A stretch of DNA of 64,000 nucleotides from Stegostoma tigrinum (taxonomy: Eukaryota). The DNA is taken from NCBI RefSeq assembly GCF_030684315.1, contig NC_081354.1, forward strand, positions 27,336,226 through 27,400,225, in the 5' to 3' direction. A program made the translations under genes and the position numbers. Shown here piece by piece: positions 10,524 through 35,616 of this stretch. Positions within the stretch are counted from its first letter, which is position 1. Every line of letters starts with the position of its first letter. The notes below the pieces were generated by a model, which saw only the letters and a list, made by a program, of their open reading frames with translations, had not been told where the DNA came from and made no database searches.

Positions 10524-10536
10524 AATTCACATTTAC

Positions 10537-11224: not shown

Positions 11225-11435
11225 CCAGCAATTTGCACATGGGAGACTCCCAGACAGAAATGTCATGGTGATCAGATAATTTTGTTTGACTGCTGCATAG
11301 ATATCAGTTAGTACACTGGAGAGAGCTCCTTTAATCTTTGCAACAGTGCCATGGAAACTTTTAAGTCCAGCAGAGAGAGCAGAAAATGTATCCTCTAGTA
11401 CAAAAATAGCATCTCCAACAGATGCAACACCACAC
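11225..11435 (-). mobile_element. Deu-domain-like SINE remnant
   Basis: Resembles the DeuSINE/AmnSINE central domain (gatgctattttt...ctgctctctc...ggacttaaaagtttccatggcactg). Confidence 0.45.
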
Positions 11436-11519
11436 AAGCCAAGAGTTCATCCCCTGCAGTTGCAGTGACAATAAATGCAGTTAACAAAATTGCACATTTA
11501 GTACTGTTCTGAAGTGTCA

Positions 11520-11895
11520 GAGTCACAGAGTTGTTCAGCACGGAAACAGACCTTTCGGTCCAACTCAGTCCAGCTCATCAAAGCCGACCAGATATCCTAA
11601 ATTAATCTAGACCTATTTGCCTGCATTTGGTCCATATCCCTCTAAACCCATCCTTTTCATATACCCAACCAGATGCCTTTTAAATGTTGTAATTGTACCT
11701 GTATCACCACTTTCTTTGGCAGCTCGTTCCATACACGCACCACCCTCGGTGTGAAAAAGTTACCCCTTAGGCCCCTTTTAAACCTTTTCCCTCTCACCTT
11801 AAACCTATGCCTTCTAGTTTTGGACTCCTCTATACTGGGGAAAAGACCTTGTCTATTCAACCTATCCGTGCCCCTTGTGAATTTACAAACCTCTA
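11520..11895 (-). mobile_element. CR1 LINE 3' end
   Basis: ORF 11657-11860: LFP...TRRHRFKVRG...NFFTPRVVRVWNELP. Confidence 0.85.
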
Positions 11896-14800
11896 CCCAG
11901 TTCCTAGGTTTATAAAAGCAAAATGGGGGAGACAGAGAGAGAGGAAAAAATTGGGAGAATAATAATGTAAATCAAAAGAACTACCAGTGCTGAAGATCTG
12001 AAACTGCTAGAGAAAATCTGTGGAGGGAAAGCAGAGTTAGCATTTTCAATCTGGTGAGAGAGTAACAATAAATCTTAAGGGTAAGGTTTAAGTAAATAAC
12101 AGTGAGAATGTATGAGGAGCAGCAGCCACCGCCATTGACTAAAGTGGGTGCCAATGGCATTATGTTAAATCCCTAGGGTGGAGCCTTTTTAACAATGTAT
12201 TTAAGTTACTTGTATAGCGCAGCAGATTTATATAAGAAAGTACACAGTGGAAATGTATTGTATTAAAACTGTTGGATTTAATGGGTTAATGTTTATTAAA
12301 ATTATTATTAAAATAAAAGGTATTTCATATTTGCAAAGAAAATAGCTAACACTGTAAAGGGAAAATGTTTGAGATATTTTTCAGATGAAATGTTAAGCCT
12401 TGAGTCGTTATTAAAGACCTCGTGGGATTTGTTTATCAGTGAATTTTGGCGTTCAGTAATTTTAAAATTCTTTCCTTAAATTAACAACCATTCTTATAAA
12501 ATTGTTTGCAGCCTATTACTGTAAAAAGTGGAGAAACAAGAAAATACCTCCAACAATTTTGAGCACATCCCTAATTGCTGATTCAGATTTAGGAGATTTT
12601 TGATCACAACTACAACTGCTTTCACTTTAAAAGCTTCAACCAACGTCCAAACACTAATCAGCTACTGCATCAAGAAGTATTTTCTCATATTGGAGAAGGA
12701 AACAGAGTTAACATTTTCAGCCTGATATCATTTCAAAACTGAAGAATCATAACTCTATTTCTTTCTTTGCAGATGCTGGCCAGATCAAGAGTTTTTCCAG
12801 CATTCTCTGCATTTGCCTTAGATTTCCAGCATCCACAGCATTTTGCTTTTTTTCCCCCTCATATTGCTTTCACTTCTTTTGCCGATTACTTTAAATATGT
12901 GCTTTCTCATTCTTGCTCCTTTGATGATGGGGAGCTGTTTCTCACTATCAATTCTGCCTCTCAAAAATTTGAATATCTCTATTAAGTCTCCTTTCAGCCC
13001 TTTCTTCTCAAAAGGAAAGCAGTGCCAACACCCTTAGTCAATCTATATAAATGAAGTCTGACATCCTTGGAACCATCCATGTTCAATCATTTTTTCTGCA
13101 CCCATTTAATCCTTCACAACCTTCCTAAAGTGAAATGCCAAAAATAGGATGCAATATGCTGAGACTGAACTTCTATCTTATACAAGTTCAATCCAATCTC
13201 TTCATTCTTGTGCTTTATGCTCCTATGAATGAAGTCTAGGGTACTATATATTTTATTAACTGTGTTCTCAACCTATCCTGTCACCTTTAATGGATCATGT
13301 AAATATACACATGTTCCTCTGCTCCTGCACCTTTTGTTTTACCTCTTCACGATCTTCCTTACAAACTGAACAACTTCACATTTTCCCATATGGAGTTTCA
13401 TTTGCTATCTACCTGCCATTCAACCAACTTGTCAATATACTTTTACATTGTAAACATTCCTCGTCACAATTCATAATGAATCAGATTTTTTTTAATAGGA
13501 AATAAATTATGAAATAATGCCCTATATGCCAACGTCCAGGAAATTAGTATATATCAGGAAAACAGGGGCTTCAAAAGTGATACCTGGGATATTCCAGCAT
13601 AAACATTCTTCCAACTCAAAAAACATATGTTGCTGTTTCTTGTTACTCCACAAATGTGGTACACTGCATTTATTGGTGCTGCAACAGAAGGGGGTCATAC
13701 TCATAGGCAGTACTGAAACGTGGACAATGACTTCACTGATAAGTAGAATTGGGAATGGGGGAAAGCAAACAGAGTAGGGAATGGAAGAAAGTGGGGGGTG
13801 AACAATCAGGGGTTGGAATAGAAGGATGGAGGGTTAGGGCTTAGCAGAGTGGGAGAGTGGAAGGGGAAGGAACAGTCAAGATCAGGGCAGCAGGATAGGA
13901 AGGTGAACATAGGGGGCGGGAGAGCATAGCTCTGATTGGGGGTAGGGATTCCAAACAGAGTGTGGATTGTGGACAGCAGAGCCGAAAGCTGGAGTAGGAG
14001 ACTGCAGGGCAGGGAACAGAAGAGCAAGACCTGGTGCTGTGAGCAAAGGGAGGGTGACAAGGGTTTCTTGGAGGCAGCAACATCACATGCATATGCAAAA
14101 ATGCAGCTTCCGTCATGGCAGTTTGACATCATTGCCACCTGTGAAAGTGGTGGCCACCTTTGCTGGCCATTTTGGTGTCGCCAATATGGACTCTGAATTT
14201 TGTATCCATATTGTTATTTAGAATTTTCTTTCATTAGCTATAAATTCTCAAGTGTGTTGTGGGCATTGTATCAAACACTTTTTGGACATCCATGTATACA
14301 ATCAACATGAATAATGTTGCCCTCATCAATTCTTCCTATTACGTTTTCAAAATATTCCAGCGACTATTTTAGCTAAACAAATTTCCCGTGACTATTTCCT
14401 TCCAGTAATACCTCACAAAATTATTGTTTCACAGCAACAGCAATTGTGTTGGTAATATGTCCAGGTAGCCTCTGTGAAAGTTTAGTGGTGTGATATGTAC
14501 AATTGTAAGTAGCACTATGATTGAACAGAAGCAGGAATAAACCATTCAGCCTGTTAAACCTGCTCCACCACTCAAAATCATATACCTCAATTTAATTTCC
14601 TTGTAATATTCCCAAATTCCTTGATTTCTTTGATCCCTAGAAATCAATCAGTATCTGCATTGAAGAAATGTAATGACTAAGCTTCAAAATACCTCCAGGG
14701 TAAAAAAAAATTCAAAAGGTTCACTACCCTCTACATGAAGAAGTTCCTCCTCTCCTCAGTCCTAAATAACTTGCCCCTTATTCTAAGAGTGTGTTGTCTG

Positions 14801-15131
14801 ATTCTAAACACCACAAGGAAGGGAACCATCTTCTTACACTGTCTACCCCTTTAAAAGTTTCAATGGCATCACCTTTTATTCTTCTAAACACTCACAAATA
14901 CAGGGTCAGTCTCCTCACAGGGCAGTCTTGCCATCCCAGGAATTAATCTGGTGAACCTCCATTGTACTCCTCTGTGACAAATACATCTTTTATTGGGTAA
15001 GGGGATCAAAACTGTACAGTATGGCAGATAGAGTGTCACCAAGCTTCTATAAAGTTGGTGTATGACATTTTTACAGTTATACTCACCCTACAGAGTTCAT
15101 ACTTGACAACCACACATGAACATTTCCCTTG

Positions 15132-16593
15132 AGATAATAAGATGTAGAGCTGGATGAACATAGCAGGCCAAGCAGCATCAGAGGAGCAGGAAGGCTGATA
15201 TTTCGGGCCTCGACCCTTCTTCAAAAATGGGTGAGGGGAAAGGGGTTCTGATAATAAACAGGGAGAGAGGGGCAGAAGATGGATAGAGGTGAAGATAGCT
15301 GCAGAGGAGACAGACAGGTCAAAGAGGTGGGGATGGAGCCAGTAAAGGTGAGTGTAGATGGGGGACAGGAGGGGAGGGGGGAAGATAGGTCAGTCCAGGG
15401 AGGATGGACAGGTCAAGGGGGTGGGATGAGGTTAGTAAGTAGGAGGTAGGGGTGGGGCTGGAGGAGGGAGCAGGGGATAGGTGGAGGAAGGACAGGTTAG
15501 GGAGGTGGGGACAAGCTGTGCTGGTTTTGGGATGCAGTAGGGGAGGGGAGATTTTGAAGCTTGTGAAGTCCTCGTGTACCACCCCACCAACCTCTGGATC
15601 CAATGCATCAACCTCCGACACTTGCGTCATCTGCAATCCGACCCCACCACCACATTTTTCCCTCCCCACCTTTATCTGCCTTCCAGAGGGACCACCCTCT
15701 CCAGGATTCCCTTGTCCGCTCCACACTCCCCTCCAACCCCACCACACCTGGTACTTTTTCTTGCAACTGCAGGAATGCTACACCTGCCCCGATACCTCCC
15801 CCCTCACCCCCATTGCAGGCCCCAAGAAGACTTTCCACATCAAGCTGCTGTTCACCTGCACATCTGCTAATGTGGCATACTGTAGTATCCACTGTTCCTG
15901 TTGTGGCCTCCTCCAGTGTGAAACCAAACGGAGGCTTGGGGACTGCTTTGCAGAACACCTACGCTCGGTTCACAATAAACAACTGCACCTCCCAGTCACG
16001 AGCCATTTCAACTGCCCCTCCCATTCCTCAGATGACATCCTGAGCCTCCTGCAATCCCACAAAGATGCCACCCAAAGGTTGCAGGAACAGCACCTCATAT
16101 TCTGCTTGGGAACCCTGTAGCCCAATGGTATCAATTTGGACTTCACAAGCTTCAAAATCTCCCCTTCCCCTACCACATCCCAAAACCAGTCCAGCTTGTC
16201 CCCGCCTCCCTAACCTGTCCTTCCTCCCACCCATCTCCTCCTCCCACCTCAAGCCCCAATCCCATTTCCTACCTACTAACCTCATTCCACCCCCTTGACC
16301 TGTCTGCCCTCCCTAACCTCCCACCTACACTCACCTTTACTAGCACCATCCCTGCCTCTTTGGCCGGTCTGTCTCCTCCCCACCTATCTTCTCCTCTATA
16401 CATCTTCTATCCCCCTCCCTCTCTCTCTCCCTATTTATTTCAGAACCCCCTCCCTCTCCCCCATTTCTGAAGAAGGGTCTAGGCCCAAAACATTAGCCTT
16501 CCTGCGCCTCTGACGCTGAATGGCCTGCTATGTTCATCCAGCTCAACACCTTGTTATCTCAGATTCTCCAGCATCTGCAGTTCCTACTATCTC
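15132..16593. mobile_element. Inverted-arm PLE insertion with GIY-YIG endonuclease region
   Basis: 15-bp TSD tgaacatttcccttg (15117-15131, 16594-16608). Inverted arm runs to 15571; the direct part encodes CYTC...ANVAYC...ETKRRLGDCFAEH...LQEQHLIFCLGTL. Confidence 0.9.
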
Positions 16594-17889
16594 TGAACAT
16601 TTCCCTTGTTGACTGCTATTATCTCTAAAGTTCATGAGCAGCAAATTCAACTGTCACATTCCAATGCCCTCATGTTCTTTGCAGCATTCCCCATTTGTGG
16701 TCCATGGACTTCTTTCATGCCAATACTAATACTGCTGAAAAACAAGACATTAGGAGATTTGTTACCACAGAACATTAGAGAAATGCCTTACGAATGGCTA
16801 TCTCTGATTTTGCGTTTTCGTCTTGTGAAGAGGCACCTGGGTTCTCCTTGCTAACATTCATAACAGTAGATGGGCTCCGGCTTACACATCATATGGAGGT
16901 TGGTGTTGATGCTTTGCCACTAAATGAAACTAAGTTAAACTGACACAATAAAGAGGTGGGTGGTAGGGCTGGAGGTAAAAAGCACTTAACAACCACATGC
17001 ACACATTTCTCCTGTTCCAACTGCTATTATCTCTCAAGATAAAGATCCAAATCTGTTTTGAAAAAATGAACATGCAAAAACATAGACCATTAGTGTCAAA
17101 AATACTATTTTGTTTATTGCTTTGGAAAGAGACAATTTATAAAAAGCAAAATATTTACTGAATATACTTAGGTTTTTTGTTAGTACATCTAGTGACAATA
17201 ACCACAGCTTCATTGCTAAATGCTGAGAAGGAAATTAGAATCCACAATGGACCTGGAATTTGCCTTTTTGTACTTAGCAATCAACAACTAGTTTTCCCTG
17301 TCAAGATTATGTACTAATGATAACAAATTCTGGTCTCTGCATATGTGTGGCTAAATGTGAAAACCCTAAAGTTTCTGTTGGAGACACTTGTCCTGTCTTC
17401 ACATGATAAGACTGTTGCATCATTGCTGTGCAATCAGCACAGGACTAGTAATTTTACATTTACTTTACTATTTTAAGCTCTAATTTTATTGAAAATGGAA
17501 AAACAGTGCATTAAGTTAGAACTTCTTGAATGAACTCAAGTGTTCTAAGTCGCAATTATTCATAAACAACCTCGCGGAACCTTAGAAATACAGAATGTTG
17601 TTCCTTATATTTCAATATAAAAATTCCATGTTTCAAAAATTAATATTACAACAAATAAAAGGTAAAATTAACTTAATCTCTACCTTTAACTCTGTGCTTG
17701 ACCTAATTGTTATCCTACACTCTGCAAAATGATTAAAAAGTGAATTTGCAGATTTCCTGCAAAAATTCCTCAATTTGGTTGTCTGCTCTGCCTTTGCTGA
17801 ATGTCAGAAGTTCTCCATGGAGAGCTCCAGTGTGAAATTGGCATAATAATGGGGGAAAGCAACATCACAGAATTTGCTAAATCCTTTTG

Positions 17890-18690
17890 GTTTATTTTTA
17901 TTTCAAAAATATACTTTATTCATAAAAATATCTTTATTATATTGACATACCGTCACTAAAACAGTTCAATTCTATATGGCAGCACGTGAAGAAACAAACA
18001 AACATTGGAGTTTAGCTCTATCCAAAAAACAAACCAAAGGCATCTCTTACTTGTGTAAGATTATAGTAACATATAATGGAAGTACCAGGTGGGTCTGATA
18101 ATTGAACAGACCCCCATTTGACTTTGGCAGAAAGACCTCAGACAGTGGTTTCTCCACACTTTGCCTTGGCAGCAGCTGCCCCAAGCTTTAGTGCATCCCT
18201 CAGCACGTAGTCCTGGACCTTGGGATTTTGCCAGTCTGCAACATTTGATTGGGGTCAACTCCTTGTTCGGGAAGACCAACAAGTTTTGGGCAGGCCAAAG
18301 GCGGTCTTTCACCACGTTGATGGTCCTCCAGGTGCAGTTGATGTTTGTCTTGGTGCCTCCTGGGGAACAGACTGTAGAGCACAAAGTCCCCTGTCATGGA
18401 GCTGTTTAGGATGAACCTCAACAAAAACTGCTGCATCTTTCTCCAGAATTCCTTTGCAAAGGCACATTCCAGCAGCGATGGATGATAGTCTCTAACCCTC
18501 CCCTACAGCCACTTCAAGAGCAGAGTGCAGTGGCATAGTCTCAAAGGTAATGCCTTTCTCACCACCAGCCAGTGCTAGTTGGAAAGTTCCGGTGATGAGG
18601 CATTTTGCCAAATGACTTTTGACAGCCTGCTCAGGAATCACTTGACAAGATCCATCCTCTCCTTGCTTTTGGGTAGCTTTCTTCAAGATT
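17890..18690 (-). mobile_element. Tx1/L1-clade LINE 3' fragment
   Basis: Peptide WRTINVVKDRLW...NLLVF...CCRLAKS resembles Tx1-like ORF2 C-termini; AATAAA and an A-rich end at about 17890-17920 on the minus strand. Confidence 0.65.
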
Positions 18691-20709
18691 ACTGATAGCT
18701 CACAATTTCATTTTGTTTTTGGCAAAGGCACTTACAGCCTCCTCCACGCTCCTTACATGATGTACTGTTCTGAAGTCACCCACATTCAAAAATTCATTAT
18801 CTTGTTGGCACAGGTGATTTTAATACAAACAGGCTACCTTTTACTGGTATCGACTGCACATCCGTGTACCTACTCCTCCAGCGGCATCGCTCCATTGCAG
18901 TACATGAGGGAATATCAAATTGGCGAAGACGACTTCTACAAGCCTGCCTGGATTTTCCGTTCAGTGTGGAAATGTAAACATCTGACTTCCGGAGGCGATG
19001 CTGACCTAACATTAATATATTCATGCTGTTATGCCAATCTTATTTGCAAAATATAATTACAACTTCAACGCTAAGTATTAGTGAGGTGGAAGAACAACCT
19101 GACTTGGGGAATTATTGATCCCAATAGCGTGAGCCAGCGGTAAGACGCAGCAAAAGCTCTGGACCAATGATGCATTTACGACTTCAGTTTTATGTTCTTT
19201 ATATTCACTAAGATATCTAGCAAATCGTAGCATACAGTTCTGGAACGTTTGTATATGGTCGCGTGTGTTGTCGAAAAAAAATCTATAGGATTATTAAACA
19301 CTTTATATAGTTCAATTTGTGTGACATTAATATTGCCCGAATTATTTGTTTACAAGCCTTTTCATTTTTAGGCAAGAGACTTAAGAGAACGGGTGGGACA
19401 AGGTTCTTAGGTGTACCTTCCCAAAATATAGAGATTTGGCAGAGGATTCAGAAAGAAATGCATGCATTTCCAGCAAGGATTACAGAATAGCAATCCGGCA
19501 ATTGAATTGCTGTTGATTATTCCCTCCGGATGCCGGCGCTAAAGCCGACTACAGCATTCACACGAGCACCCTATCTGCGGTTAGTTATATCAGTATAGGC
19601 TGGGTAACCAAGTTTGGGAAAGTCTCGGCCAGAGGGAGGCAGACATTAGAGCAGTAATAGGAGACAACATTACTCAATCACCTTTTGACCAAAAACGATC
19701 GTCGGTAAAACACATACCACAAATGCACTCTCAAATACTTAACTCTTGTGACATTGGGCATTTATCTGTTTTATTGAGCATGATCAATATTCATTATTCA
19801 CCTAAATCTGCAATGATTTCTCATTGGCATTGTAGGTTTCAGTAGGTGTGATCTGTCACACGCATTTTCTGGAAAATTTCACGCCTAACAAATGTCCAAT
19901 TTGGACATCTTTGCCCCATAAACAACAAACGTAGAGGCCTTTTTTGTCAAAGAGAATTATGATGTGCTCATTCTTGTTATGGAGTAATTTGGACACGAAC
20001 TTCCAATCCATTCACAACTGCAGTTGCACACAGAAAACAAGAAGTTGTGTCCAAGTTATTTTAGTCCACCCCAGGATCTACAACAGTAGCACCTCACTGG
20101 GCAATGCATTAAAATCTACATTAAGGCATTACGTTTGAGGTACTTGCTTTTTAATTACACACTGGAGATTTCAAAAAATGTCTTTTAATGTTGTGACCAG
20201 TCACAATTACTTCCAAACAACTTGAAAATACAATTTCAATATGATTTTGTGGAATCTCACTCCTGCAGTGTAATTAGTGTCATGATTAGAATATAACTTT
20301 TCTGTTTTAATTTGTTTGGAATTCCCTTTTGCCTTCTCAATTTTGTTTTTCACTTTCTGAACATGATTTCAGTCTTAAGTTATGTCTGACTTCAAAAATT
20401 TACATGCTCTTTTGGAAGTGTGCAAATACTAGGTGACCAACAAACTTCTTAAGAGCATGTGTCAATCTCACTTGCAAATATGATTGCGCCTCAGGCTGCT
20501 TTCCCTGGAAATAGACAGTGCACTCAGTCGGGAACCCATCCACCAATGGACAGAATGCAACTGCAGACTTGTCACCAGACCCTTGAAGGTTCCATCTGTA
20601 AGCAGCTTACAAGAGGTAAGAGCACAATGGAAATATGCCAGAGGTCTGATATAGTTACAACTAACCCGGCCTTTACATGGTGAAAACAAGACTTGGATCA
20701 TTGTGGGCA

Positions 20710-20902
20710 GAGATAATGGGAACTGCAGATGCTGGAGAATCTGAGATAACAAAGTGTGGAGCTGGATTAACACAGCAGGCCAAGCAGCATCTTAGGAGCA
20801 CAAAAAATTTTCTGAAGGGTCTAGGCCCAAAACGTCAGCTTTTGTGCTCCTTAGATGCTGCTTGGCCTGCTGTGTTCATCCAGCTCCACACTTTGTTATC
20901 TC
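20710..20902. mobile_element. Mini-palindromic (MITE-like) PLE derivative
   Basis: Arms at about 20743-20805 and 20839-20902 are reverse complements; 33-nt tail on the left; TSD ggatca(t/a)tgtgggca at 20695-20709 and 20903-20917. Confidence 0.85.
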
Positions 20903-21823
20903 GGATCAATGTGGGCACAGATCTGTCATTGCAACAGTCTCTCATTGTGTCTGCTGTCCAGGAGAGAACTCAGATTAAATACTAGTCTTCAGATGCTTTC
21001 AGTCTCATCTCTTTCATCATTAACTTTAGTCATTTATTTCAATGGTCATGATCTACTTGCTCCCTATTCAGGGGCACTCACTGCTGTCACAGTGAACTCT
21101 GCCAGTCATGTTAACCTTGAGTTGGTGATGGGCCTTCCTGCCTCTTCAGCTAGAATAGAATAACCCAGTGATCCCGGAGGCAGGTTGTTTGGGTCCTTCT
21201 TATCAGGTCATGGCTGAGCAACCTTTGCTGCTGCAAATGGGATTGATGCCTGAACATTTAGCAAATCTTCTGGACTTTAAGAAAATTAGGATTCTTTAAT
21301 CTGTTTGAAGTTTTGCTGTTACCAGCCCTTCTACACATGTGTAGGTCACTGCATCAGATGCTGAACAACAGGTCTCCTCAAAAGCCTGAAAAAAAATCTG
21401 TGAACAACTTTCAGTGAAATCTTTACCATAAATTTATTAACACAGCTAACGGTCCTTTTTTGGCCTTTATTTTAAATTGGCATGTTAATAAACCATAAAA
21501 TTAGAAACCATATTTTAACTTCATTTGTTCAATCTTCATGGATACCTCCCACCATGTTTAGAAGAGGTGCAAGTAGATTTCCCCAATAGGCACTTTGTCC
21601 ATTTTTACTATTTGTTAATGAGTTATAGGCATGACTTACTGGACCAACATTCATTGCTCACCTCTAAATATCCAGTGTGACAATTCAACCAAATAGCCAT
21701 AGCTCTTCAGTCACATGTAAAGCGAGACCTCAAGAATGACAGATTTCCCACCCAATGTCTAAGATCTTTCTGCCAAAGTACAATGAGGGTTTGTTCTGTT
21801 ATCAGAACCTCTCTTTACCTCAA

Positions 21824-22143
21824 AATGTATGTAAACCTTGTCTTGTACAAGTAGGAAATGCCTTTGGTTTTGCACTGCAGAGAATGTTAAATTCCAATTT
21901 TTTTTCTTATATTGTTACAGTTTTTGCACAGAAAAAAATAAATATTGGAATTTGACATTCTCTGCAGTGCAAAACCAAAGGCATTTCCTACTTATACAAA
22001 GCACAATTTACATACATTCTGTTACAGTTTTTTGCATATATGTAAATCACATCTTGTATAAGTAGGAAATGTTGTGTTTTGCACAGCAGAAAATGTCAAA
22101 TTCCAATATTTGTTTTTCCTTATGCAAAAACTATAAATAGAAT
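21824..22143. repeat. About 100-bp unit present three times, with the middle copy inverted
   Basis: Unit core aagtaggaaatgcctttggttttgcactgcagagaatgt(t/c)aaattccaat appears as +, - and + copies. Confidence 0.85.
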
Positions 22144-22529
22144 TGCTTTGGTACCCATGGACATAGGTTATTCATAAAAAGGTATATTTTTGCAATTAAA
22201 AAAAGTGTAGATTTTTTTATAGCAATAAACAGTAGATACATATTTGCCACTAGTCTGGCATTTTAATCAAAATCAAATTTCACCATCTGTCATGTAAGAT
22301 TCAAGTCCATGTCCCCACAACATTACCCATGGTTCTTGATTACTAGTCCTGTGACACTACCACTACTCCATGACCTTCCCTTATGCATTAACTTTTTGGA
22401 GGATCTGACGGCATGCCTCCTGGAAAATGTTGATTTTTTACATCCTGCAGTCTGATTTATTTTAAACACTTTTTCCTGATTTTTTTGGTTTTAATTCAAC
22501 AAAAAAAAAAGGAAGTTAACGACTGCTCT

Positions 22530-23060
22530 TATCCTTTTTCTTAAGCAGCCCCTCTATTTGAACATGACTTGCTACGACTGGTTTAGTGAGTTTTAAGACA
22601 GCTGACAAATCTGCTGTATGAACTGCAAACTCTACCACATGAGAGGTAGGTGGTACTTCAAGGATCAAGTAGATAAGTTGTTTGGAGGTTTGAGTGTTTT
22701 CTCCTGTATCTACAGTCCACCTCTGCAGGAAATCTTGCAATGTTTGGTGCTCTAGTAAATGAACCTACTGTATTTTGGTCAGTTACAAGTCAGGGATTTG
22801 CAAGTTTGACTGCTTCAGAAATGGTTTAAGACAGACATCGCTATAGCATTTGCCCATCATCCTGGGAATCTGCTGCCACAACTGAATTCTTGAGTAAAGG
22901 AGATGTTTTGGGAGTCTGGTGTCAGGCAGATGCAGATGTTCTGCTGTTGGACCTTTTTGTTTTTGTCATCACATTTGGAGAACCCTGTAAAGACGCCATT
23001 GGTGATGTTTCTGCTAAGATTTGAGATACATGCATATGAAAAACACCAAATGCATCAACA
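22530..23060 (-). mobile_element. RTE-clade LINE 3' fragment
   Basis: Minus strand encodes LPDTRLPKHLLYS and a decayed C-terminal CGRVC...LKTH motif typical of RTE ORFs. Confidence 0.6.
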
Positions 23061-24024
23061 AATGTCCCTCTATTGGCTGCCTTCTGCAAAACCAGAGTCT
23101 CCTCTCTTTGTACCTCTTAAGTAGTTGTCTCCCTGAATCACTTTATGCTTGTGGCCTCACAATCCAATTTTCTTTATACTCCCTCCACCATTCTGTCAAC
23201 AATACTGTACTTTTTGGGGTTCATAAGATAAAATCACAGGTTACAATGAACATGGAGTAATTCCTGCATGAAACTGACAAAAGCATTCCAAGCCTCTGAA
23301 TCTCCAATTCAGCACCATCATCACAGTTGCTGTTTTTTTTTGCTGAGTCCAAAATTGGGCATTAAGAATAGCATGCAGTTAACTCTAGTGTATTTAGTCT
23401 AATTTTCTCAGATTCTGAAAGTCTTTTTCGTGTACTTACACCCAAAGGACTACAGTGGTTCAAGAAGAGAGCTCACCACCGTCTTCTCAAGGACACTGGA
23501 ATGGGCAACAAATAGCCAGTGGCACTCAGATTCTGTGAATGCATTTTAAGAAGTAAATGTCGCCAACTTGAAATGGACATATTTCTGGATGTTTCTTCAT
23601 AGCATTCAACTACCCAGCATTCCTGTCAGCGGACAACTGACACAGCTGCCCTACAATTTCACTTACCAATTGGAAAGCAATCACATTCTTCAATGTGCAG
23701 TTGAATGAATCTTGACTGTTACTGCAACAGCTTCTTTTATCCCCATTATGCATTTTTTTCTAATTAAATCAACTAAACTCTTCAAAAGGAAATAAATAGC
23801 ATCATTTTTTTTGCACCTATAATTCCTTTCTTTGGCTGATGATAAGTATCAAGCAACTAATGTTTAATTCCAGAATTTTCTAGGGTAATCCTAGACAGTT
23901 GGTAATCCTAACCTCACACCACTACATCACTCCATGTCAAGCAGGCTGACATTTGTCCACTTGAAACGCATCACATTTGGAGATGGGTTCTGATCCATGA
24001 TATTTATACTTCTGATGACTGTAT

Positions 24025-24510
24025 ACACATCTATCAAGTCACCTCTCATCCTTCATCATTCTAAACAGAAAAGCCCTAGCTCTCTCAACCTTTCCTTGTA
24101 AGATGTTCCCTCCATTCTAGGCAATGTCCTGGTAAATCTCCTCTGCACCTTTTCCGACGCTTCCACATCTGACCTGTAATGGGGCAACCAGAACTTGACA
24201 CAATACTTTGGATGGGGCCGAACCAGGGTTTTGTACAGCTGGAACATAACTTCACAGCTCTTGAACTTAATCCCTCCATTAATGAAAGCTAACACACCAT
24301 ACGCCTTCTTAACAACTCTATACATCTGGGTGGCAGCTTTCAGGGAACTGTGGACAAGAACCCCAAGATCCCTCTGCTCCTCCACACTGCCAAGAATCTT
24401 TCCGATAACACTGTATTCTGCTTTCAAATTTGTCCTTCCAAAATGAATCACCTCATACTTTTCACGGTTAAACTCAATCTGCCACTTCTCAGCCCAGCTC
24501 TGCACCCTAT
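24025..24510 (-). mobile_element. CR1 LINE ORF2 C-terminal fragment
   Basis: ORF 24056-24604: WAEKWQIEFN, EQRDLGVLV, LYKTLVRPH...CVKFW, EKVQRRFTR, YKERLRELGLF. Confidence 0.9.
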
Positions 24511-27500
24511 GGTACATGATTAAGTCAGTCACTACAGATCCTAACACTATCTGTCTGAAAGTCATAGGGTATATTCCAAACTTGAATGATTGCAAAACAG
24601 CCACTAAGGATAAAGCAGAGTTGAGAAAACTACTAGAGAGGAGAGATCAATATCAAATACATGCACGCACACATTAAACAAACATATATAGATGGTAATA
24701 TATATTTGGCCACAAGCCCAGATTTTGTGGTCAGAACGGATGGTGTAGGCAGCAAATTACACTTTTCACATACTCATGTGCTATGAAATTTCACACTGAT
24801 ATTTGCAGTAATTAGAGAAATGAAACAGCGCAACATCTTCACTTGCTGGTGTGACCTGTGCAAATAAGGCAAACAATTATAAGGTAGATATGCCAAACAG
24901 ACCGAAAAGTCCTTACTGAGTCTAAACCAGGAAGAGTATAATAGATTATTCAATGTACTGTAGGAAAAGAAAAGCATTAACATAAGGCGATGAGACAGAA
25001 AGAAAGACTTAAAAAAAAGTTCAGCAATTTTGAAAATCTGGAAATGGGTGGGATGCTTTCTGGTCTCATGGGGTTCCGATGTTTAAAGATTCTGAAATTC
25101 GTTTGGGTGGATTTATGGCGAGTGCACTGAGACAGGTTGGGGTAGAAGATACCTGCATGTATATTCTTTGAATATGGGGTGATCATCGTACACCAACAAC
25201 AACAGCTAAGGTAGGTTTGGGCCCAGTGACAGGGAAGTCCAAGATGACTAGAGACCACACCGTGTTGTAGGACAGAGGGGACTAGCAAACATTCATCTTC
25301 TAGTAATTGTTACCAATTATTAACATGATAGCGTAGGAGACAAAGTCTGTAGTGGTGGCATATCCTGGGCCAGAGGCCAGGCCCAGTCCTGGGCTGCTTG
25401 CACCCAAGTTCCCATGGTGACAGGTTAAGGATCAAGTCATGATAGTGCAGAGGGAGCTGAAAGAGGCCAGCCAATGGAGTTCCTTCCAGCTATATCCTGG
25501 GAATTTGCCTTAAGCCAACCGGTCTAACCAACCGGGCAGTATCCTGGCAGTCTGACTCGACCCTACCATATCCCAGAGGCGAAACAATTGGATTGTGATA
25601 GGAACCATTAACCTGGGCCTGTTCCTAAGAAAAGAAACCCTCGCAGTTGTAAACATGGAACCTTCACGTTTTTAATTTAGTCCTTGCAGCTTGTACTGGG
25701 TATTAAACACTGCCCGTCTCCTGTAGGTTTGTCTTTGCTCCACACCACCACTATTTATATGAATTTGAACAGCATGTCAGTCCCTGAGATGATAATGTAC
25801 AGCAGCTTGTGAAACAGCAGAGCAAATTGGACAGAAAATTGCGGGCAATATTTTTTGGTCAGCAGTGAAGAAACAGTGATCACCACTGCCCTTGAAAGCT
25901 GCTTATAAAGATCAAGAAAGGCTTGGTGACATGTATTTCCCCTTTCTAGATGGAAGTTAAAATTTGGTGCCAAATCCGGTTTTGCCATCAAACAGGGCAA
26001 GCAGCCTATCACACTATAGTATTCTTACAGTCAGCAAATGGGGTACATTGAATTTCCAGATAATAATAATTGGTGTTTCCAAAGTAGAAGTAAATCAATC
26101 TTAATTTTAAAGATGAAACTAAAATATTAAACTTTCAAAATAATGCAGATGTTCTTAGTGAGGGAGAAGTTTTACAAAATAAAAATTCATTTTTTGGACA
26201 GGGTGTTGTTTAGCACTAAATTAGGAATATCGTGCACCATTAAAAACCCAGTTATATCTTATTTAACAAAATGTAACCTTTTCAAGACATGTTTCAACAG
26301 CACTCTTCACATGAACAGATATGTGCAAAGGGTCAGATGGTCGTCTACACCTGCTGCTCTCATCAGGAACTGCTACAATCCAAGCTCCAACCTTTTCTAT
26401 TGCAACATATGTTTCCCCTGCCCGGTTCTCTTGACATCACCTATGCTTTTTCCTCCCCCCAACTGGTTGCTGAATGGGACTTTATTGCTCTACTGACTGT
26501 TCTGTCAGATCGCAGTGATTGGCTAATTACTAATTACATGCATGCACCTGCATAAACAGAGTTTGAACAGGCTTTGGCAAACACATTGTGTGACAGAATT
26601 ACTGTTTGAATAATAGGATATTGTCTCTCATTTACCTGTCGAAAAATTTTCTGTTGGAGGGGTAAAGAATCTATGAAGTATACAAATTTGTTTGGGGAAG
26701 AATTTCCGAAGTGATTCTGAACCTGAATTGTTTGTGAACTATTCCGGGAAGGGGGTCATAATACTAGTGGTGATTTTTGGAGGCATGGGGCTTAAATTTT
26801 TGGGTTGTGCTAGGGCAACTTATAGGAGATACCGGAGTCAATTTAATCCACAAAATGTGAAATAATCAGGATAAATATATTTGTAATAATTTAGGAGAGA
26901 TGCTGGGAGTTGCAAATTCCTGGGAAGTGTGGAAACTTAAGGCCACATCTGCAGATACCAAAAGCAGTATACCTTAAGATATAATATGCTGTTGTACATC
27001 TGGATCGCATGGAAGCCCTAAGATGGCATGTGCACTAACTGCCCGAGAAGATTAAACATGGCTTTATGAAAATTTCTCCAATATTTAATTTTGTATTGGA
27101 TATTTTGGATCTAAGTACTACCAACATGAACCGTTCACTGGAAAGTCATGTCAGTCATTAATAGCAGAGCTTACCCCACTCCCATTACAAAAATATCCCC
27201 ACACCAACTACCACTCCAACCTGACTGCCCATTCTTGCCTCCTCCACCCTGAAACTCACTCACTTCCATCCCTAAATTTCTTATTGTTTTTGAGGTATTT
27301 ATCATTGAACAGAACGTACAACTGCTGTGGGAAGAAGGTTGTGACCTCACCTCTTCAACACTCCACATTCTTCTGTCCTAGCACCTAAATTCTGCTGCAC
27401 CCAAGACTGGAAGACAGCTGCAGTTACAAAAAGAACAACTATAATTCGTAATTGTCTTTTCTTACTGTTAGCTAGAATCACAACAGTACTTTTGCTAACT

Positions 27501-29469
27501 GGAAGGCCTGGCCTATTAAATTTAAACCTCAAATTCTTGGAATGTCTTTCAAGGCTGTTTTTGTAATTTTTCAATATTGTAAACTTTGAATTATTCACAT
27601 AATAACAGGAACTTTGAAATTAACTTTTACTATATCATTCAAAAATGCTTTATGCATATATGTGAAAAACTAAATACTAACAGGAACTTTTAAGCATATA
27701 CTATTGTAGTATCTACAGTATTATACAACAAAAATCCCTTGCACAACTTAGAATTATTCATAGAAAACCACAGGAACTTTGAACATAATTTTTCACAAAT
27801 TGCTTTCACAGAAATTGTGTATCTGATCGCTGAGCTCCAATATGCATTACATTTTCATGATTTTTTTCTATTAATTTCAGAAGAACTTTTACTTCTCACC
27901 TAACAGCATTCTTCCAGTAGGAAGATAGTTACCCAAACTCTCTTTGACTCAAGTTTTGTGGAGCCTTTGTTAGGCACTTCTTTGGAAGCAAGTTCATATG
28001 TACTTTTTTTCCCCCATCTGACATAGTTCCATAGCATTTCCCCTCATGTTTGAAGGTAGCATCTTCAAGTTTACTTGTTCCCTCGTTCACTGTTGATTGG
28101 ATCATGACTTATGTGAGTTTTTCATAATTATAACAATCTAAGCATGCTTCTGGAGGCCAAGAAAGCAGCAGCCATTATACTACCTAAATGTCTTCAGTAC
28201 AGGCAATTGCAGAATCAATAGTTAGTTTCTGACTTTGCAATATGAATGCTTAAACTGCTGGCATGAGTTCTTTCATTCATTTAAGATAGTGTCACTTCTG
28301 TTTCATCTGCTTCTATATGAAATTCCATTCTGTCAGAGACTGTCCACAGTCACAACATGTCATTATTTCAATTTTTGTAATTTCCTCCATGCATATGTGC
28401 AAGCAGAATATCTCTTTGGGGATTTCATTTCTGTACTGGGGTTAATTGGAACATGCAGACATGAGAACAAACAGATCTTCTAGTAGATTTTAATGTTCAG
28501 TAGCCAGGTGGAGAAGATTGAGGTAATCTCTCAACATTGATGGCCAGAAAATTGAAAGAACAGACGTAATGCTTCATTAGTTTAAAGTAATGCTTATAAA
28601 ACTTGTGCGGCTGAACCAAACATGACCTGCACATTTCAAGCTCCATGTCCACTTGATACTACTTGTCAACAGTAATGCACTTTGTACCTGAATTAAGCTA
28701 GATTCCAATGGTGTCAGCATCTCTGTAATTATCCTGCCAGCTCCAAAAGGTATTTCCCCAATGTGGTTACTTTTGTTCACCCACAGACTAAATCTATGAT
28801 CCTTCTTTCACAGCCCCCACAGTCCTCGTTATGTCCAATCCCTTTGGACTAATATTGCAGCCAAAACACATGTTTCTGTTTTTTTCCATGCAGTGGCAAG
28901 TCTTGTCTGTGACAGACAGCAGAGTTGTCTTCTGTCATACAATGATGCCACATATGAGGCAGCTAGTACAATCTTTGTTTGTGGGATCCTGTCACTTACA
29001 ATTTCCACTGAAAATCCTCACTACTGAGCATACACCAAATCTTTGGCCAAACCTAACAATGGCACCAATGTTTCACAGATACTGGTTCTTTCTGTGATAA
29101 ATACCTCCAAACAGCCTGTAGTAGGAAATTTGTGTTAAGAAAAAAATTTACTCCAATGGTAAAAGGTAGATCCATACGATTATCAAAGCACAATTCCTGC
29201 AGAAAACAGACAGATTTTCTCCCTTATAGCACTGAACAGGAAGAGTCCATGATGTGAGGAGGAAGGGCCAACTGAAGAGCAGCAAAATGTCAACCAGCTG
29301 ATTTGCTTTTAACATAACAAAAAACGACCATGCACAAACAACCAATCATTCCAAATTTTATTATGCATTAACCACCAATTTAAGTTATAGGCATTATTGG
29401 AAAACTCTTGTTAAAACAGTCCTGAATGTGATTAGTAGCTGCAAAAACAGGTGAGTTCAATTCCTGCAG

Positions 29470-30228
29470 TTACTTGTGAATTTTCTGGTGTTTCTGCAGG
29501 TGTGAAGACTGAATGAATCCCTTCCCACATGCTAAACAGATGAATGGCCTCTCCCCACTGTGAACTCGCTGGTGTATCAGTAAGTGGGATGAAGTAATGC
29601 ATCCCTTTCCACACTCAGAGCAGGTGAATGTCTTCTCCCCAGTGTGAACCTGTTGGTGTGTCAGCAAGGTGGATGAACGAGTGAATCCCTTCCTGCAGAC
29701 TGAGCACATGAATGGTCTCTCCCCAGTGTGAGTGCGCTGATGGGCCAGAAGTTGCTTTATACTTTTAAAGCACTTCTGACAGTCAGAGCAATGAAAAGGT
29801 CTCTCCTCTGTGTGAACTTGCTGGTGTGTCAGAAGCTCAGATGACTGAATGAAACCTTTCCCACATGCAGAGCAGGTGAATGGCTTTTCTCCAGTGTGAA
29901 TTCGTTGGTGTCTTTGAAAGTTAGCTGACTGGGTGAAACCCTTTCCACATACAGAACAGGTGTAAGGTGTTTTACCAGTATGAACTCGCTGGTGTCTCCG
30001 AAGGCTGGCTGATTGAGTAAAACCTTTCCCACAGTCAGAACAGGCGAATGGTCTCTCCCCAGTGTGAATTCGTTGGTGTGTCAAAAGGCTGGATCTCTGT
30101 GTAAATTCTTCCCCGCAAGCCAAGCAGCTGAATGGTCTCTCCCCAGTGTGACTGCGTCGATGATTTTCTATCTGGGATGGGTAACTGAATCTCTTCCCAC
30201 AATATTCACATTTCCATGGTTTCTCCAT
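29470..30228 (-). CDS. Tandem C2H2 zinc-finger protein, 9 fingers, 252 aa, no effector domain visible
   Basis: Uninterrupted ORF with nine CxxC...HxxxH fingers joined by TGE(K/R)PF-type linkers. Candidate acceptor ctttttacag|G at 30410/30409 upstream; AATAAA on the minus strand at 29357-29362. Confidence 0.9.
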
Positions 30229-31745
30229 ATTGGGGTGGCCTTGTCTTTCTCCAACACTTATAATCAGTTGAAGACTGATCCACTAATAGAACACATATTC
30301 GTTTTTGCTATGATTAGCATGATACTTTTGCAGGCTGCACAAATGGTTGAAATACTTCTTTCACATTCAAAGGCTGCTGGTATTCAGGCCCTGAAGAGTC
30401 GAGTAACCCCTGTAAAAAGGAGTTTACAAAAACTATCATTTTCAGTTTAAGAACGAAAGTTGTGAGATTCTCTTCTGCTTCCTGGTGGAAGATGGCTGTG
30501 CAATTGACCTATGGCACACTGCCCACAGGAGTCACAATATGCCTTACTGCACATTGTGTTTGTTTTTAAATTCAGGCAACATTTTGATTGCTAACATTTG
30601 TGTAACTCATTTTTCACTTGTTATGTTTCTGAAAGACATATTAAGGTTAAATGCCAAAATATGAAAAGCAATGTAAAAAAGATAGACATCTTAAAAACTG
30701 GAAATGTGAAAAACAAAAGAAGTGTAAAATGGTCAGTGTCAATATCTGTGGAAAATGATACAGTACCTCATTTCTAAATCAGGAGACCTTTTCAATGCAC
30801 CAACTGGTTGTTATTTCAAGACACAATAAATATTTGTCTGAGTGGCTGTTGTGGCATGAAAATTTTTAAATATACATAAAATTGAGGAGTGGCAACAAGC
30901 ATCAAGAGCAGAAAAGAGGTCATGAGAGAAAAATCCACTTTTGCAAGTAATGCACAAATTACCTTCATTGATGTTTAATATTATAAATGTTCTGTTTAAA
31001 GTTTCTATTAGAATTATCGCACATTTATACACGTATATGCAAAGTATCTTCGTTCAATCATTCAGCAGACATTGGCCCAGATTTCCCTATGGGAAGACAG
31101 TCATTGCAGCAGCGTGGACTGGATTTGCACTTAAGGACCACGTGGAATCCCCCACACATCTGACTCCCCGGGTACTGTGCCGCAAGTTGAAATTTCTGAC
31201 AGCCAATTATCTAATGTTTCAAAGCCTCTGCAAAAGTCCCAATTCAAACCAGACCTTTTGGAGGGTTCCTAGTTTAATTACCCAGAGTAAGCCAGAAGAA
31301 TTAAAATCTGTTCTAATTGCTGGAATACTATTAAATTATAACCCATAAATCACTAACGAATCCCCTGTTTTAACACCCCCTGGACACCCTAGCCCTCCAT
31401 ACTCCCACACAAATTGGACCTGAGTCCCAACTGCAGCCCTTACACTCCACCGTATTGAATCTTGCCACTGAGTGGAACTGCAGATGTAGAGTTCTCAATC
31501 GAACCAGAAGATCTAGGCCATTATGTTCAAACAACTTATTGGTATTGATTATGCACACTTATGTTCAAAGCAATTTCTATATTACTCAACAAGGCTTTTT
31601 TTCCCTAAAGTTCCTATTAGTATTAATTCTACACATAACAAATCATCTTGAGTGGTAACAGTTACATTCACAGATCCTATTAACAATATGTGAATTAGTC
31701 TAATTCTACCAAGGTTTTGAAATTTCCCAACAGCCTTGAAAAATA

Positions 31746-34114
31746 GAGATAACAAGGTATAGAGCTGGATGAACACAGCAGGCCAAGCAGCATCAGAGGA
31801 GCAGGAAAGCTGATGTTTCAGGCCTAGACCCTTCTTCAGAAATGGGGGAGGGAGAAGGCTTCTGAAATAAATAGGGAGAGAGGGGGAAGTGGATAGAAGA
31901 TGGATAGAGGAGAAGATAGGAGGAGAGGAGACAGGTCAAAGAGGTGGGGATGGAGCCAGTAAAGGGGAGTGTAGGAAGAGAGGTAGGGAGGAGATAGGTC
32001 AGTCCAGAGAGGACAGACAGGTCAAGGGGGCGGGATGAAGTTAGTAGGTAGGAGTTGGAGGTGGGGCTTGAGTTGGGAGGAAGGACAGGTTAGGGAGGCA
32101 GGGATGAGCTGGGCTGGTTTTGGGATGCGGTAGGGGGAGGGGAGATTTTGAAGCTCATGAAGTCCTTCCCAAAATCCACAAACCTGACTGCCCTGGTCAA
32201 ACCATTGTCTCCGCCTGCTCCTGCCCCAACAAACTTATCTCCACCTATCTCGACTCTATTTTCTCCCCCTTACTCCAGGTACTCCCTAACTACATCTGTG
32301 CCACCACCCATGCCCTCCTCCACAACTTCCAATTCCCCTGTCCCCAACACATCTTTACCAGTCCCTATACACCTGCATTCCCCATATGGATGGCCTAAAG
32401 GCCATCTGCTTCTTCCTGTCCTGCAGGCCCAACCAGTCTCCCTCCAGTGACACCCTCATCCGCTTAGCCGAACTCGACCTCACACTTAACTTCTCTTTTA
32501 ATTCCTCCCACTTCCTATGAACAAAGGGGGTGGCCATGGGTACCCGCATGGGACCAAGCTACGCCTGCCTCCTTGTAGGTTACGTGGAACAATCCCTCTT
32601 CCGTACCTACACTGGCCGCAAGCCCCACCTCTTCCTCCGTTACTTTGATGACTGTATCAGCGCCACCTCGTGCTCCCACGAGGAGCATGAAATGTTCATA
32701 CACTTCACCGACACCTTCCACCCCAACCGTAAGTTCGCCTGGACCATCTCGAATACCTCTCTCTCCTTCCTGGACCTCTATCTCCATTTCTGGCAACCAC
32801 CTAGAAACTGATATCCATTTCAAGCCCACCGACTCCCACAGCTACTTAGAATACACCTCCTCCCACCGACCTACCTACCTACAAAAATGCGATCCCCTAT
32901 TCCCCTTTCCTTTGCCTCCGCTGCATCTGCTCCCAGGAGGCATTCCACTCCTGTACATCTCAGATGTCCTAATTTTTCAAGGACCGCAACTCCTCTCCCC
33001 CCCTCACTGGTCGAGAACGCCCTCAACTGTGTCTCCCAGACATTTCCCGCAACTCATCCCTCACACACCTCCCCGCAATTACAATCAAAACAGAATACCC
33101 CTTGTCCTCACCAACCTCCAGATCCAATGCATCATCCTTCGACACTTCTGCCATCTGACCCCACCACCAAAGGCATTTTTCCCTCCCCACTCTTATCTGC
33201 TCTCTGGAGGGACCACTCTCTCGGTGACTCCCTTGCCTGCTCCACACTCCCCTCCAGCTCCACCTCACCCGGCACTTTTCCCTGCAACCGCAGGAAGTGC
33301 TACACTTGCCCCTACACCTCCTCCCTCACACCCATCCCAGGCCCCAAGAAGACGTTCCACATCAAGCAGACCTGCACATCTGCTAATGTGGTATACTGCA
33401 TCCGCTGTTCCCACTGTGGTCTCCTCTACATCGGGGAAACCAAGCGGAGGCTTGGAAATTGCTTTGCAGAACATCTACGCTTGGTTCGCACTAAACAACT
33501 GCATCTCCCAGGGGCGAACCATTTCAACTCCCCTTCCCATTCTGACATGTCCATCCTGGGCCTACTGCAGTGCCACAACAATGCTACCAGAAGATTGCAG
33601 GAACAGCGACTCTTCTTCCGCTTGGGAACCCTGCAGCCCAATGGCATCAATGCGGACTTCACAAGCTTCAAAATCTCCCCTCCCCTGAACGCATCCCAAA
33701 ACCAGCCCAGCTTGTTCCCGCCTCCCTAACCTGTCCTTCCTCCCACCTATCCGCTCCTCCCACCTCAAGCCCCACCCCGATCTCCTAACTTCATCCCACC
33801 CCCTTGATCTGTCCATCCTCCCTGGACTGGCCTATCTCCTCCCTATCTCCCCACCTACACTCACCTTTACTGGCTCCATCCCACCTCTTTGACCAGTCTG
33901 TCTCCTCTCCACGTAGCTTCTCCTCCGTCCACCTTCTATCTGCCTCCCTCTTTCTCTCTATTTATTTCAGAACCCCCTCCCCATTTCTGAAGAAGGGTCT
34001 TGGCCCAAAACGTCAGTCTTCTTGCTCCTCTGATGCTGCTTGGCCTGCTGTGTTCATCCAGTTCTACACCTTGTTTTCTCAGATTCTCCAGCATCTGCAG
34101 TTCCTTCTATCTCT
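31746..34114 (+). mobile_element. Longest PLE copy: inverted pseudo-LTR arm (31746-32165) followed by frameshifted RT, zinc-knuckle linker, GIY-YIG and pseudo-LTR
   Basis: 14-bp TSD agccttgaaaaata (31732-31745, 34115-34128). Motifs LPKIHKP, GVAMGTRMGPSYA, RYFDD, FLDL, HFKPTDSHSYLEYTSSH, CNRRKCYTC and NVVYCIRC...LYIGETKRRL. Confidence 0.92.
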
Positions 34115-34710
34115 AGCCTTGAAAAATAAATCTATCAATTCCAGGTTCAAAATTTAAAATTGAGCTACGTTATAGTCGCCAGTGACTCTGTCGCGAATTT
34201 CATTTCCAGATGCAGCAGGGATTCTAGGCTGTAGCCATCTGGTCAGTGTATGAAACACAGCAAAATTGAAAGCACCCCTGTACTTTAAAAAAAAATTATC
34301 CCTTTCTTGCAATTTCAAATACATCTAAATTTGTCTTATGGGTTATGTACATACATTTAGCATTCAGATTTCAAAAGGTGCCAATCTCGTTCCACAGGTC
34401 TTTATTTTATGTTCAAAATTGTACCATGTTCTTTTTCCTTGTTAGCATATTGTTCTTCATAAAATTACTTCTTGCTATCTACATACTAACTTCAGCATCT
34501 CATGTGCATCTTAAAACCATTACAAAAAAAGGAGCAGGATGTTCCTATTAAAAATCGGAATAGAAATTTCAACCCCACAGGGCTGCTTTGCCATTCAATA
34601 GGATATGACTGACCTGACATTCTGCATGTCCACTTTTATGCCCTTTCCCCAAAACTATTGATTCCCCTACTGATCAAGGATCTATTTCCTCTATTAAACA
34701 TACACAAGGA

Positions 34711-35616
34711 TAATAAAGTGTGAAGCCAGATGAACACAGAAGGCCAAGCAGCATCTCAGGAGCACAAAAGCTGATGTTTCAGGCCTAGACCCTTCATCAG
34801 AGAGGGGGAATGGGGAGGGGGTTCTGGAATAAATAGGGAGAGAGGGGGAGGCGGACCGAAGATGGAGAGAAAAGAAGATAGGTGGAGGAGAGTATAGGTG
34901 GGGAGGGGATAGGTCAGTCCAGGGAAGACGGACAGGACGAGGAGGTGGGATGAGGTTAGTAGGTAGGAAATGAAGGTGCGGTTTGAGGTGGGAGGAAGGG
35001 ACAGGTGAGAGGAAGAACAGGTTAGGGAGGCAGACACAGGCTGGGCTGGTTTTGGGATGCAGTGGGGGAAGGGGAGATTTTGAAGCTGGTGAAGTCCACA
35101 TTAATACCATTGGGCTGCAGGGTTCCCAAGTGGAATATGAGTTGCTGTTCCTGCAACCTTTGGGTGGCATCATTGTGGCACTGCAGGAGGCCCATGATAG
35201 ACATGTCATCTGAGGAATGGGAGGGGGAGTTGAAATGGTTCGCGACTGGGAGGTGCAGTTGTTTGTTGCAAATGGTGTTCTGCAAAGCGGTCCCCAAGCC
35301 CCTGCTTGGTTTCCCCAATGTAGAGGAGGCCACACCAGGTACAATGGATACAGTATACCACATTGGCAGATGCGCAGGTGAACATCTGCTTAATATGGAA
35401 AGTCATCTTGGGGCCTGGGATGGGGGTGCGGAAGGAGGTGTGGGGGCCAGTGTAGCACTTCTGCAGTTGCAGGGGAAGGTGTCGGGTGTGGTGGGGTTGG
35501 AGGGGAGTGTGGAGCGAACAAGGGAATCACGGAGAGAGTGGTCTCTCCGGAAGGGGATGGAAAAAGGTCTTGGGTCGTGGGGTCGGATTGTAGATGGCGG
35601 AAGTGTCAGAGGACGA
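34711..35616 (-). mobile_element. 5'-truncated single-orientation PLE copy inserted in a CR1 3' end
   Basis: NVVYCIHCTWCGLLYIGETK (GIY-YIG). Begins at the short gataataa end with no tail; possible 7-bp TSD acaagga (34704-34710, 35617-35623). Confidence 0.85.

Follow-up and report, generated by a model that had tools for sequence, protein, structure and literature searches.

How does a retroelement come to lie in a genome as two inverted arms with unequal outer ends? This question is raised by a 64,000-nt stretch of Stegostoma tigrinum DNA (GCF_030684315.1, contig NC_081354.1, positions 27,336,226 to 27,400,225; hereafter the window), where a Penelope-like element (PLE) with reverse transcriptase (RT) and GIY-YIG endonuclease (EN) motifs has inserted repeatedly. 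An initial annotation named five of these insertions and proposed that two defined priming sites, one per target strand, make the element a routine generator of genomic hairpins. As compared by self-BLAST, all five insertions consisted of two head-to-head PLE arms, one carrying a short terminal tail and the other tail-less. All existed as named (15132-16593, 20710-20902, 31746-34114, 59619-60803 and 7421-8776), each enclosed in a single target-site duplication (TSD) of 15, 15 (one mismatch), 14, 14-16 and 10 bp, respectively. The reading that we favour, with some reserve, is that such pairs arise when both nicked target strands prime RT at two sites ~35 nt apart, probably on one RNA.

Pairing of tailed and tail-less arms

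We sampled eight contigs of the 3.2-Gb genome blindly, taking a 200-kb block from each at round coordinates (1.6 Mb in all), and termini were located with a tail-free probe, giving 338 outside the window. The sample contained 109 adjacent head-to-head pairs, 99 of which combined a tailed with a tail-less arm as judged by tail score. A TSD score of 10 or more was obtained for 75 of 114 real pairs (window included) vs 13 of 562 shuffled flank pairings, indicating that both arms share one TSD and do not lie in separate ones, the outcome that would have spoken against the initial annotation. The idea that the arms are independent neighbouring insertions, or lie together by chance, can point to nested copies, which do occur (window 7885-8006; C19 and C26 blocks), but it is refuted by the shared TSDs and fits poorly with junction gaps of 15 nt or less in 58 of the 66 pairs described below, so that we give it next to no weight.

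From the 75 pairs we removed the 4 window pairs, 3 pairs outside the end range and 2 pairs with arm-internal false TSDs, leaving 66 TSD-verified pairs. Note that the 5 removed pairs from outside the window were likewise tailed plus tail-less by tail score. All 66 had one arm of each type. Since single-arm copies end at either site (13 tailed and 24 tail-less copies with a TSD), independent choice would yield mixed pairs in at most half of the cases, and the result had a P of 1e-20 against this 50% ceiling. None of the 10 same-type neighbours, again defined by tail score, shared a TSD of score 10; five were nested, deleted or within larger one-of-each insertions, one comprised two copies with their own TSDs, and the remaining four lay apart with no common TSD. 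Furthermore, a second set of 19 loci, picked solely on the inner junction, was one of each in 17 cases (15 with a TSD score of at least 10), and a third set of 88 further loci, 29 of which were picked for carrying the tail, gave 22 of 22 TSD-consistent pairs with one of each, one of them read by eye. Over the three sets, 103 of 105 TSD-flanked pairs were one of each, and tailed/tailed pairs numbered 0. Ten vestigial second arms of 7-30 nt or more were read by eye, and 9 of them also complemented the type of the main arm.

Positions on the element are numbered from the last tail base (0, window position 34114), with negatives upstream. In the sampled pairs the tailed end was sharp, lying within -3..0 in 64 of 66 (sd 1.5), and the tail-less end was more spread, lying within -38..-31 in 53 of 66 (sd 3.3), so that two defined end positions, as proposed initially, were borne out by clustered rather than broadly distributed ends. 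The overhangs first listed for the window (33, 33, 34 and 31 nt) were also recovered by self-BLAST as 34 nt (or 33 with the G at 15131 included), 33, 34 and 31 nt; the short arm of the 7421 copy did begin about 14-15 nt further in. A fixed offset of 31-34 nt was, however, an overstatement: outside the window the median was 35 and the range 22-46, with 27 of 66 pairs at 31-34 and 59 of 66 at 29-40. Similarly, a TATCT(C) motif was present at both sites as described, but the short terminal inverted repeats inferred from it were not, because an exact terminal inverted repeat of at least 5 nt was found in 2 of 66 pairs. In 32 of 66 pairs an inverted match of 5-8 nt lay no more than 5 nt from the ends; it is a by-product of the common TATCTC-like motif, not a transposon terminus. 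The TSDs were 10-19 bp long, mostly 13-16, with AT-rich targets, and no microsatellite targeting was evident in the TSD list of the sampled pairs. A DNA transposon with terminal inverted repeats, or a miniature inverted-repeat transposable element (MITE), was rejected on the scarcity of exact repeats and the variable TSD length.

The open reading frame (ORF) of the element passes both end sites and continues, placing both outer ends within the 5' coding part of the RNA. We take the end sites as RT start sites because of in vitro work on the Poseidon element PAc of Anolis carolinensis, which placed two RT start sites within the beginning of the ORF, one at either border of the tail (PMC11167929). 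That report also describes cutting and extension of both target strands, no difference in start site between the strands, a predicted dimer, uncleaved RNA as the main template, and AT-rich targets. Our element has in common with PAc the two internal start sites at the tail borders, the extension of both strands and the AT-rich targets. It differs in that PAc belongs to the Poseidon clade and showed no strand difference in vitro, and two-site pairing per insertion and a capped run-off end are unreported in the available text of PMC11167929. The 144-nt end folded as RNA had a z of 0.48, that is, no unusual stability, and we therefore make no structural claim for the start sites.

PLEs with inverted pseudo-long terminal repeats (pLTRs) resemble the present insertions in having head-to-head arms in one TSD, a tail at a single end, a tail that encodes the ORF N-terminus, and a TATA-like pLTR box. 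In the sections available of PMC3846280 (Adineta Pen2a) and PMC8557442 (Naiad and the general scheme), the tail, of 30-40 nt on one of the two inverted pLTRs, is optional; in contrast, nearly every pair here had one arm of each type, no pair was tailed on both sides, and either arm could be the longer. A 34-bp repeat is the counterpart in D. virilis (PMC2377424), and hammerhead pairs on opposite strands, 100-700 bp apart, have been described (PMC4209133). The end asymmetry and the two-site idea are thus already in print, as far as the accessible parts of PMC3846280, PMC8557442 and PMC11167929 go. On the other hand, a literature search for coupled pairing, shared-template evidence or a cap G in PLEs returned no report, although paywalled work or supplements might hold one.

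Arm lengths and the origin of the second arm

Arm extents were correlated within the 66 pairs (rho 0.73), both arms being long in 15 pairs, both short in 46 and mixed in 5. The length class was therefore concordant in 61 of 66, whereas subfamily-stratified permutation gave a mean of 43.5 and a maximum of 55 in 20,000. In 18 long pairs, 28 private variants (i.e. absent from the 15 nearest copies) were common to both arms, and 121 and 177 were unshared; by our own arithmetic, chance would account for a few common ones. The shared variants together with the correlated lengths therefore point to a common template for both arms.

Common private variants would also be produced by fold-back, in which a tail-end-primed cDNA copies itself and the endonuclease trims the second arm ~35 nt short, as suggested in PMC3846280 and PMC8557442. 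Perfect palindromes fit this model as well, such as 59619-60772 (1154 bp, 100% perfect by self-BLAST, with its centre at GACATGTC), as do the greater breadth of the tail-less end and a fold-back into flanking DNA at one locus of the C3 block. However, fold-back forbids a tail-less arm that reaches further 5', yet this was seen in 23 of 66 pairs (the tailed arm reached further in 17, and 26 were equal) and in 12 of the 20 long pairs (-1019 vs -124 in one example), and it leaves tail-less ends on the 24 single-arm copies with TSDs unexplained. Because either arm may be the longer, simple fold-back is disfavoured; it is largely refuted for most copies, and we consider it improbable. The C3 locus itself (L188:9656 to L189:5046, G000:C3:60179656-60185046) has a 14-bp TSD, and ~300 bp of flank plus part of the tail-less arm are inverted before a nearly full-length tailed arm; it is a fold-back or template switch into the flank.

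Several observations weigh against double priming on one RNA. One locus, L207, is a true tail-less/tail-less pair with a TSD; the second arm of L192 ends near -94; one vestigial arm is possibly of the same type; and in the third set 15 of 37 pairs had no consistent TSD and stand outside the 22 of 22 count. The C3 block 179656-185046 does show real fold-back into flanking DNA. In the one in vitro study, start-site use was the same for top and bottom strand (PMC11167929). One priming site per target strand, as initially proposed, fits the 103 of 105 TSD-flanked pairs and is a likely feature rather than an observed one. Shared variants could instead stem from gene conversion or unsampled sub-lineages, and correlated lengths could come from symmetric deletion of palindrome centres. 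In addition, subfamily labels were discordant in 9 of 47 pairs, and when short arms were compared with their partner and with the nearest other copy, the partner was closer in 12 cases, equally close in 17 and further in 36 (of 65).

The last two observations are accounted for if both strands prime on two RNA molecules, with an asymmetric dimer holding an outer and an inner site and the RNAs coming mostly from one active source. This would also explain the one-of-each rule with no need of strand displacement. It fits poorly, however, with the length concordance of 61 of 66 and the 28 private variants common to both arms, unless a single source is locally dominant, and we hold priming on two RNAs to be unlikely, though deserving more weight than fold-back.

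Double priming on one RNA would proceed as follows. The GIY-YIG domain of a PLE protein dimer would nick both target strands with a stagger of about 14 nt, and each 3'-OH would prime at one of the two TATCTC-like sites within the ORF 5' coding region. As the two RT active sites of a dimer presumably cannot occupy the same site, one site would fall to each target strand, and the trailing RT would displace the first cDNA. With the 5'-most sites in use, both cDNAs may run off the capped end, leaving hairpins of ~100 + 130 nt, and long arms may start from the same sites in a downstream tandem unit. End-joining would then link the two cDNA ends into a palindrome, and where one arm failed, a copy with a single arm, tailed or tail-less, would remain. 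What we observed are the end positions, the pairing, the arm lengths and the excess of G; the dimer, the single RNA, the strand displacement and the cap are what we infer. A stronger version, which we put forward as tentative, is dedicated double priming: the dimer might load one capped RNA, the RTs starting ~35 nt apart, one per strand, and copying in tandem by displacement. The tail would then be the footprint of active-site spacing, the inverted pLTR would be what the reaction normally yields, and copies of ~130 nt would be run-off cDNAs of a strong-stop-like kind.

In LINE-1 (L1) twin priming, the internal position at which the second primer anneals is variable, and there is no overlap between the two pieces. 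Here, in contrast, both primers would start from a pair of fixed, neighbouring sites, and the overlap of the arms makes them true palindromes. An L1-type inversion is thus ruled out as the structure by overlapping arms and fixed starts, although the insertions resemble twin priming (named in PMC4859970) in working, since both nicks would prime on element RNA and an inverted product with a TSD results. L1-like non-overlapping 5' inversions were seen in a minority of copies (C26 block 188676-189476 and 10890-12676).

The inner edge at -132

A single base marks the stop of many arms. It lies 132 nt upstream of the last base of the tail and 30 nt below a TATTTAT box; the TATTTATT box begins 30 nt above -132 in 64 of 81 copies. 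Specifically, 53 of 116 inner ends lay at -133..-120 and 2 of 116 near a predicted hammerhead cut. Head-to-head junctions at this spot numbered 6,927 genome-wide, with blunt joins at -132 (888), -131 (91) and -133 (12). The base before C(-132) was G or A in a ratio of 987:127, vs 26:16 at an internal control site (Fisher P 1e-5) and a background of 1.29. The extra G was mostly outside the TSD in 30 loci read, and single-arm copies also stopped at the -132 base with excess G. In L1 and SVA, an untemplated 5' G is interpreted as the trace of a cap that was reverse-transcribed (PMC4859970), and transcription starts of the YC/TCT kind are described in PMC6954239. A fixed stop with an excess of G is what run-off at the capped 5' end of an RNA would be expected to give, and the -132 edge is likely to be such a run-off. 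We infer that C(-132), which lies in a pyrimidine run, is a capped RNA start of the YC/TCT kind.

The 888 copies with one identical junction, like the correlated arm lengths, could alternatively reflect pre-formed inverted masters, from which palindromes would be copied whole as a MITE-like non-autonomous family with the asymmetry inherited. Nevertheless, the identical junction makes up 888 of 6,927 matches at the spot, and single-arm copies stop at the same base with excess G; exact terminal inverted repeats are nearly absent. Since the junction varies from pair to pair in nearly all of the 66 sampled, descent from a palindromic master is disfavoured, and we judge it very improbable.

Inner breaks also coincided at other positions. 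The tail-less arms of two independent subfamily-A insertions (15571 and 32165) share an inner end at template base -460, close to the end of the ORF. The palindromic GACATGTC site is the break point of both the 7421 and the 59619 copy. Such coincidences hint at favoured RT stop or joining sites.

The origin of PLE inverted repeats and tail is stated as an open question in the available portions of PMC11167929, PMC3846280 and PMC8557442. The present counts turn a structure described as optional into a near-rule of one site per arm, oppose simple fold-back, favour one template for both arms and locate, to the base, a likely capped start of the RNA. Each of these points makes a direct prediction for the in vitro system already set up with Poseidon. 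At least 7.9% of the sampled DNA belongs to the family; dedicated double priming, if true, would, as extrapolated from 41 per Mb, have produced palindromes in this genome in numbers of the order of 10^5. The earlier view that genomic hairpins are made routinely is supported. Given this coverage and since most pairs are near-perfect palindromes, the family probably contributes cruciform-prone DNA on a large scale and, should it be transcribed, double-stranded RNA too.

Element identity and other features of the window

A near-full-length copy elsewhere in the genome (L189) encodes DKG, the RT motifs TMDVQSLY, GPSY and YIDDC, VVYC..C..YIGET and a CCHH finger, and its linker between RT and EN, FPCNRRKCYTC, fits CX2-5CxxC. 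As in EN+ PLEs, motifs indicate a single ORF with RT plus a GIY-YIG domain at its C-terminal end, a DKG motif and a CCHH zinc finger in the EN, and a direct or inverted pLTR has a 30-40 nt tail that overlaps the ORF start. The PLE identity given initially is supported. With Neptune clade PLEs (PMC8557442) the element shares the order of RT, CX2-5CxxC linker and C-terminal GIY-YIG, the CxxC between the two motifs, the DKG motif and a putative hammerhead-like pLTR motif. That linker is described as a trait of Neptune and Nematis and as absent from Penelope/Poseidon in the accessible sections of PMC8557442, by whose definitions the element is a Neptune-type PLE, a clade assignment resting on motifs. 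In database searches, the Pfam GIY-YIG match had an E of 0.0012 and 19.5 bits, under the 22.6 cut-off; Pfam RT did not match the decayed copy, and neither Pfam on eight window ORFs nor a PDB sequence search gave a match. There were 74 homologues with identity up to 54%, most with RVT_1, and no intact copy was seen among the copies examined.

In the pLTR, the TATTTATT box lies at about -162, the hammerhead-like motif at -128..-100 and the ATG at about -81. Stem II pairs of the hammerhead-like motif were retained in 31-38 of 41 distinct variants, changes being mostly one-sided. Rfam gave no hammerhead match and sub-threshold microRNA hairpin matches only. Coordinates are collected in Table 1. 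Note that the TSD of the candidate sixth pair (5961-5976/6097-6112, 14/16) was read by eye.

Table 1. Positions of PLE arms, TSDs and pLTR features in the window
Feature	Position	Strand	Remarks
Likely sixth pair	5978-6096		Absent from the initial annotation; tailed arm minus, tail-less arm plus; internal deletions in both
TSD left	7411-7420		10 bp, 10/10
Tail-less arm	7421-8128	-	Outer end about 14-15 nt short; broken by nested insertion
Nested single-arm tailed mini-insertion	7885-8006	+	Inside 7421-8776 copy; own 9-bp TSD CCATGATGG
Tailed arm	8147-8776	+	Self-BLAST
TSD right	8777-8786		Pairs with 7411-7420
TSD left	15117-15131		15 bp, 15/15 match
Tail-less arm	15132-15571	-	Self-BLAST
Tailed arm	15582-16593	+	Tail 16560-16593; self-BLAST
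TSD right	16594-16608		Pairs with 15117-15131
TSD left	20695-20709		15 bp, 14/15, 1 mismatch
Tailed arm	20710-20805	-	Tail 20710-20742; template extent shorter than partner arm; self-BLAST
Tail-less arm	20813-20902	+	Self-BLAST
TSD right	20903-20917		Pairs with 20695-20709
TSD left	31732-31745		14 bp, 14/14
Tail-less arm	31746-32165	-	Subfamily A, 420 bp; self-BLAST
Tailed arm	32166-34114	+	Decayed RT C-terminal half (GPSY at 32550), linker CX4CxxC, GIY-YIG 33388-33440, 3' pLTR
TATTTATT box	33959-33966	+	Upstream of putative RNA 5' end; possible promoter; spacing shortened by deletion in this copy
Minimal type I hammerhead-like motif	33985-34016	+	CUGAnGA, stem II, GAAAC-GUC; predicted cut after 34014
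ORF start	34033-34114	+	ATG 34033, MLLGLLCSSS...; frame continues beyond tail in longer copies
34-nt tail between two end sites	34081-34114	+	TTTTCTC ending 34080, CTATCTCT ending 34114
TSD right	34115-34128		Pairs with 31732-31745
Single tail-less arm	34709-35616	-	TSD uncertain, 7-nt match
TSD left	59605-59618		Match extends 2 nt into arm (59605-59620/60804-60819, 16/16)
Tail-less arm	59619-60195	-	Self-BLAST
Tailed arm	60196-60803	+	Tail 60773-60803; self-BLAST
TSD right	60804-60819		Pairs with 59605-59620

Short head-to-head arms of a second, older family, whose end is similar (TTCTCCAG...CAGCATCTG), were seen at 10536-10705, 37932-38052, 43432-43519 and 60862-60930; this is possibly another PLE family of the same build. 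A 315-bp inverted repeat (47573-47887/48090-48404; 96.5% identity, 200-bp spacer) is separate from the PLE, and no further copy of it was found in the window or the 1.6-Mb sample. An AT-rich nested inverted/tandem repeat at 21821-22136, unique in the sample, gave sub-threshold microRNA hairpin matches. A 270-aa open frame on the minus strand (29470-30282) contains about nine C2H2 zinc fingers as 84-bp repeats and is probably an exon of a zinc-finger gene. In addition, a dispersed repeat of ~300 bp, resembling a short interspersed element (SINE), occurred at 11519-11821, 41683-41949, 45199-45407, 50285-50456, 50979-51091 and 62899-63062, with 75 matches in the window and blocks.

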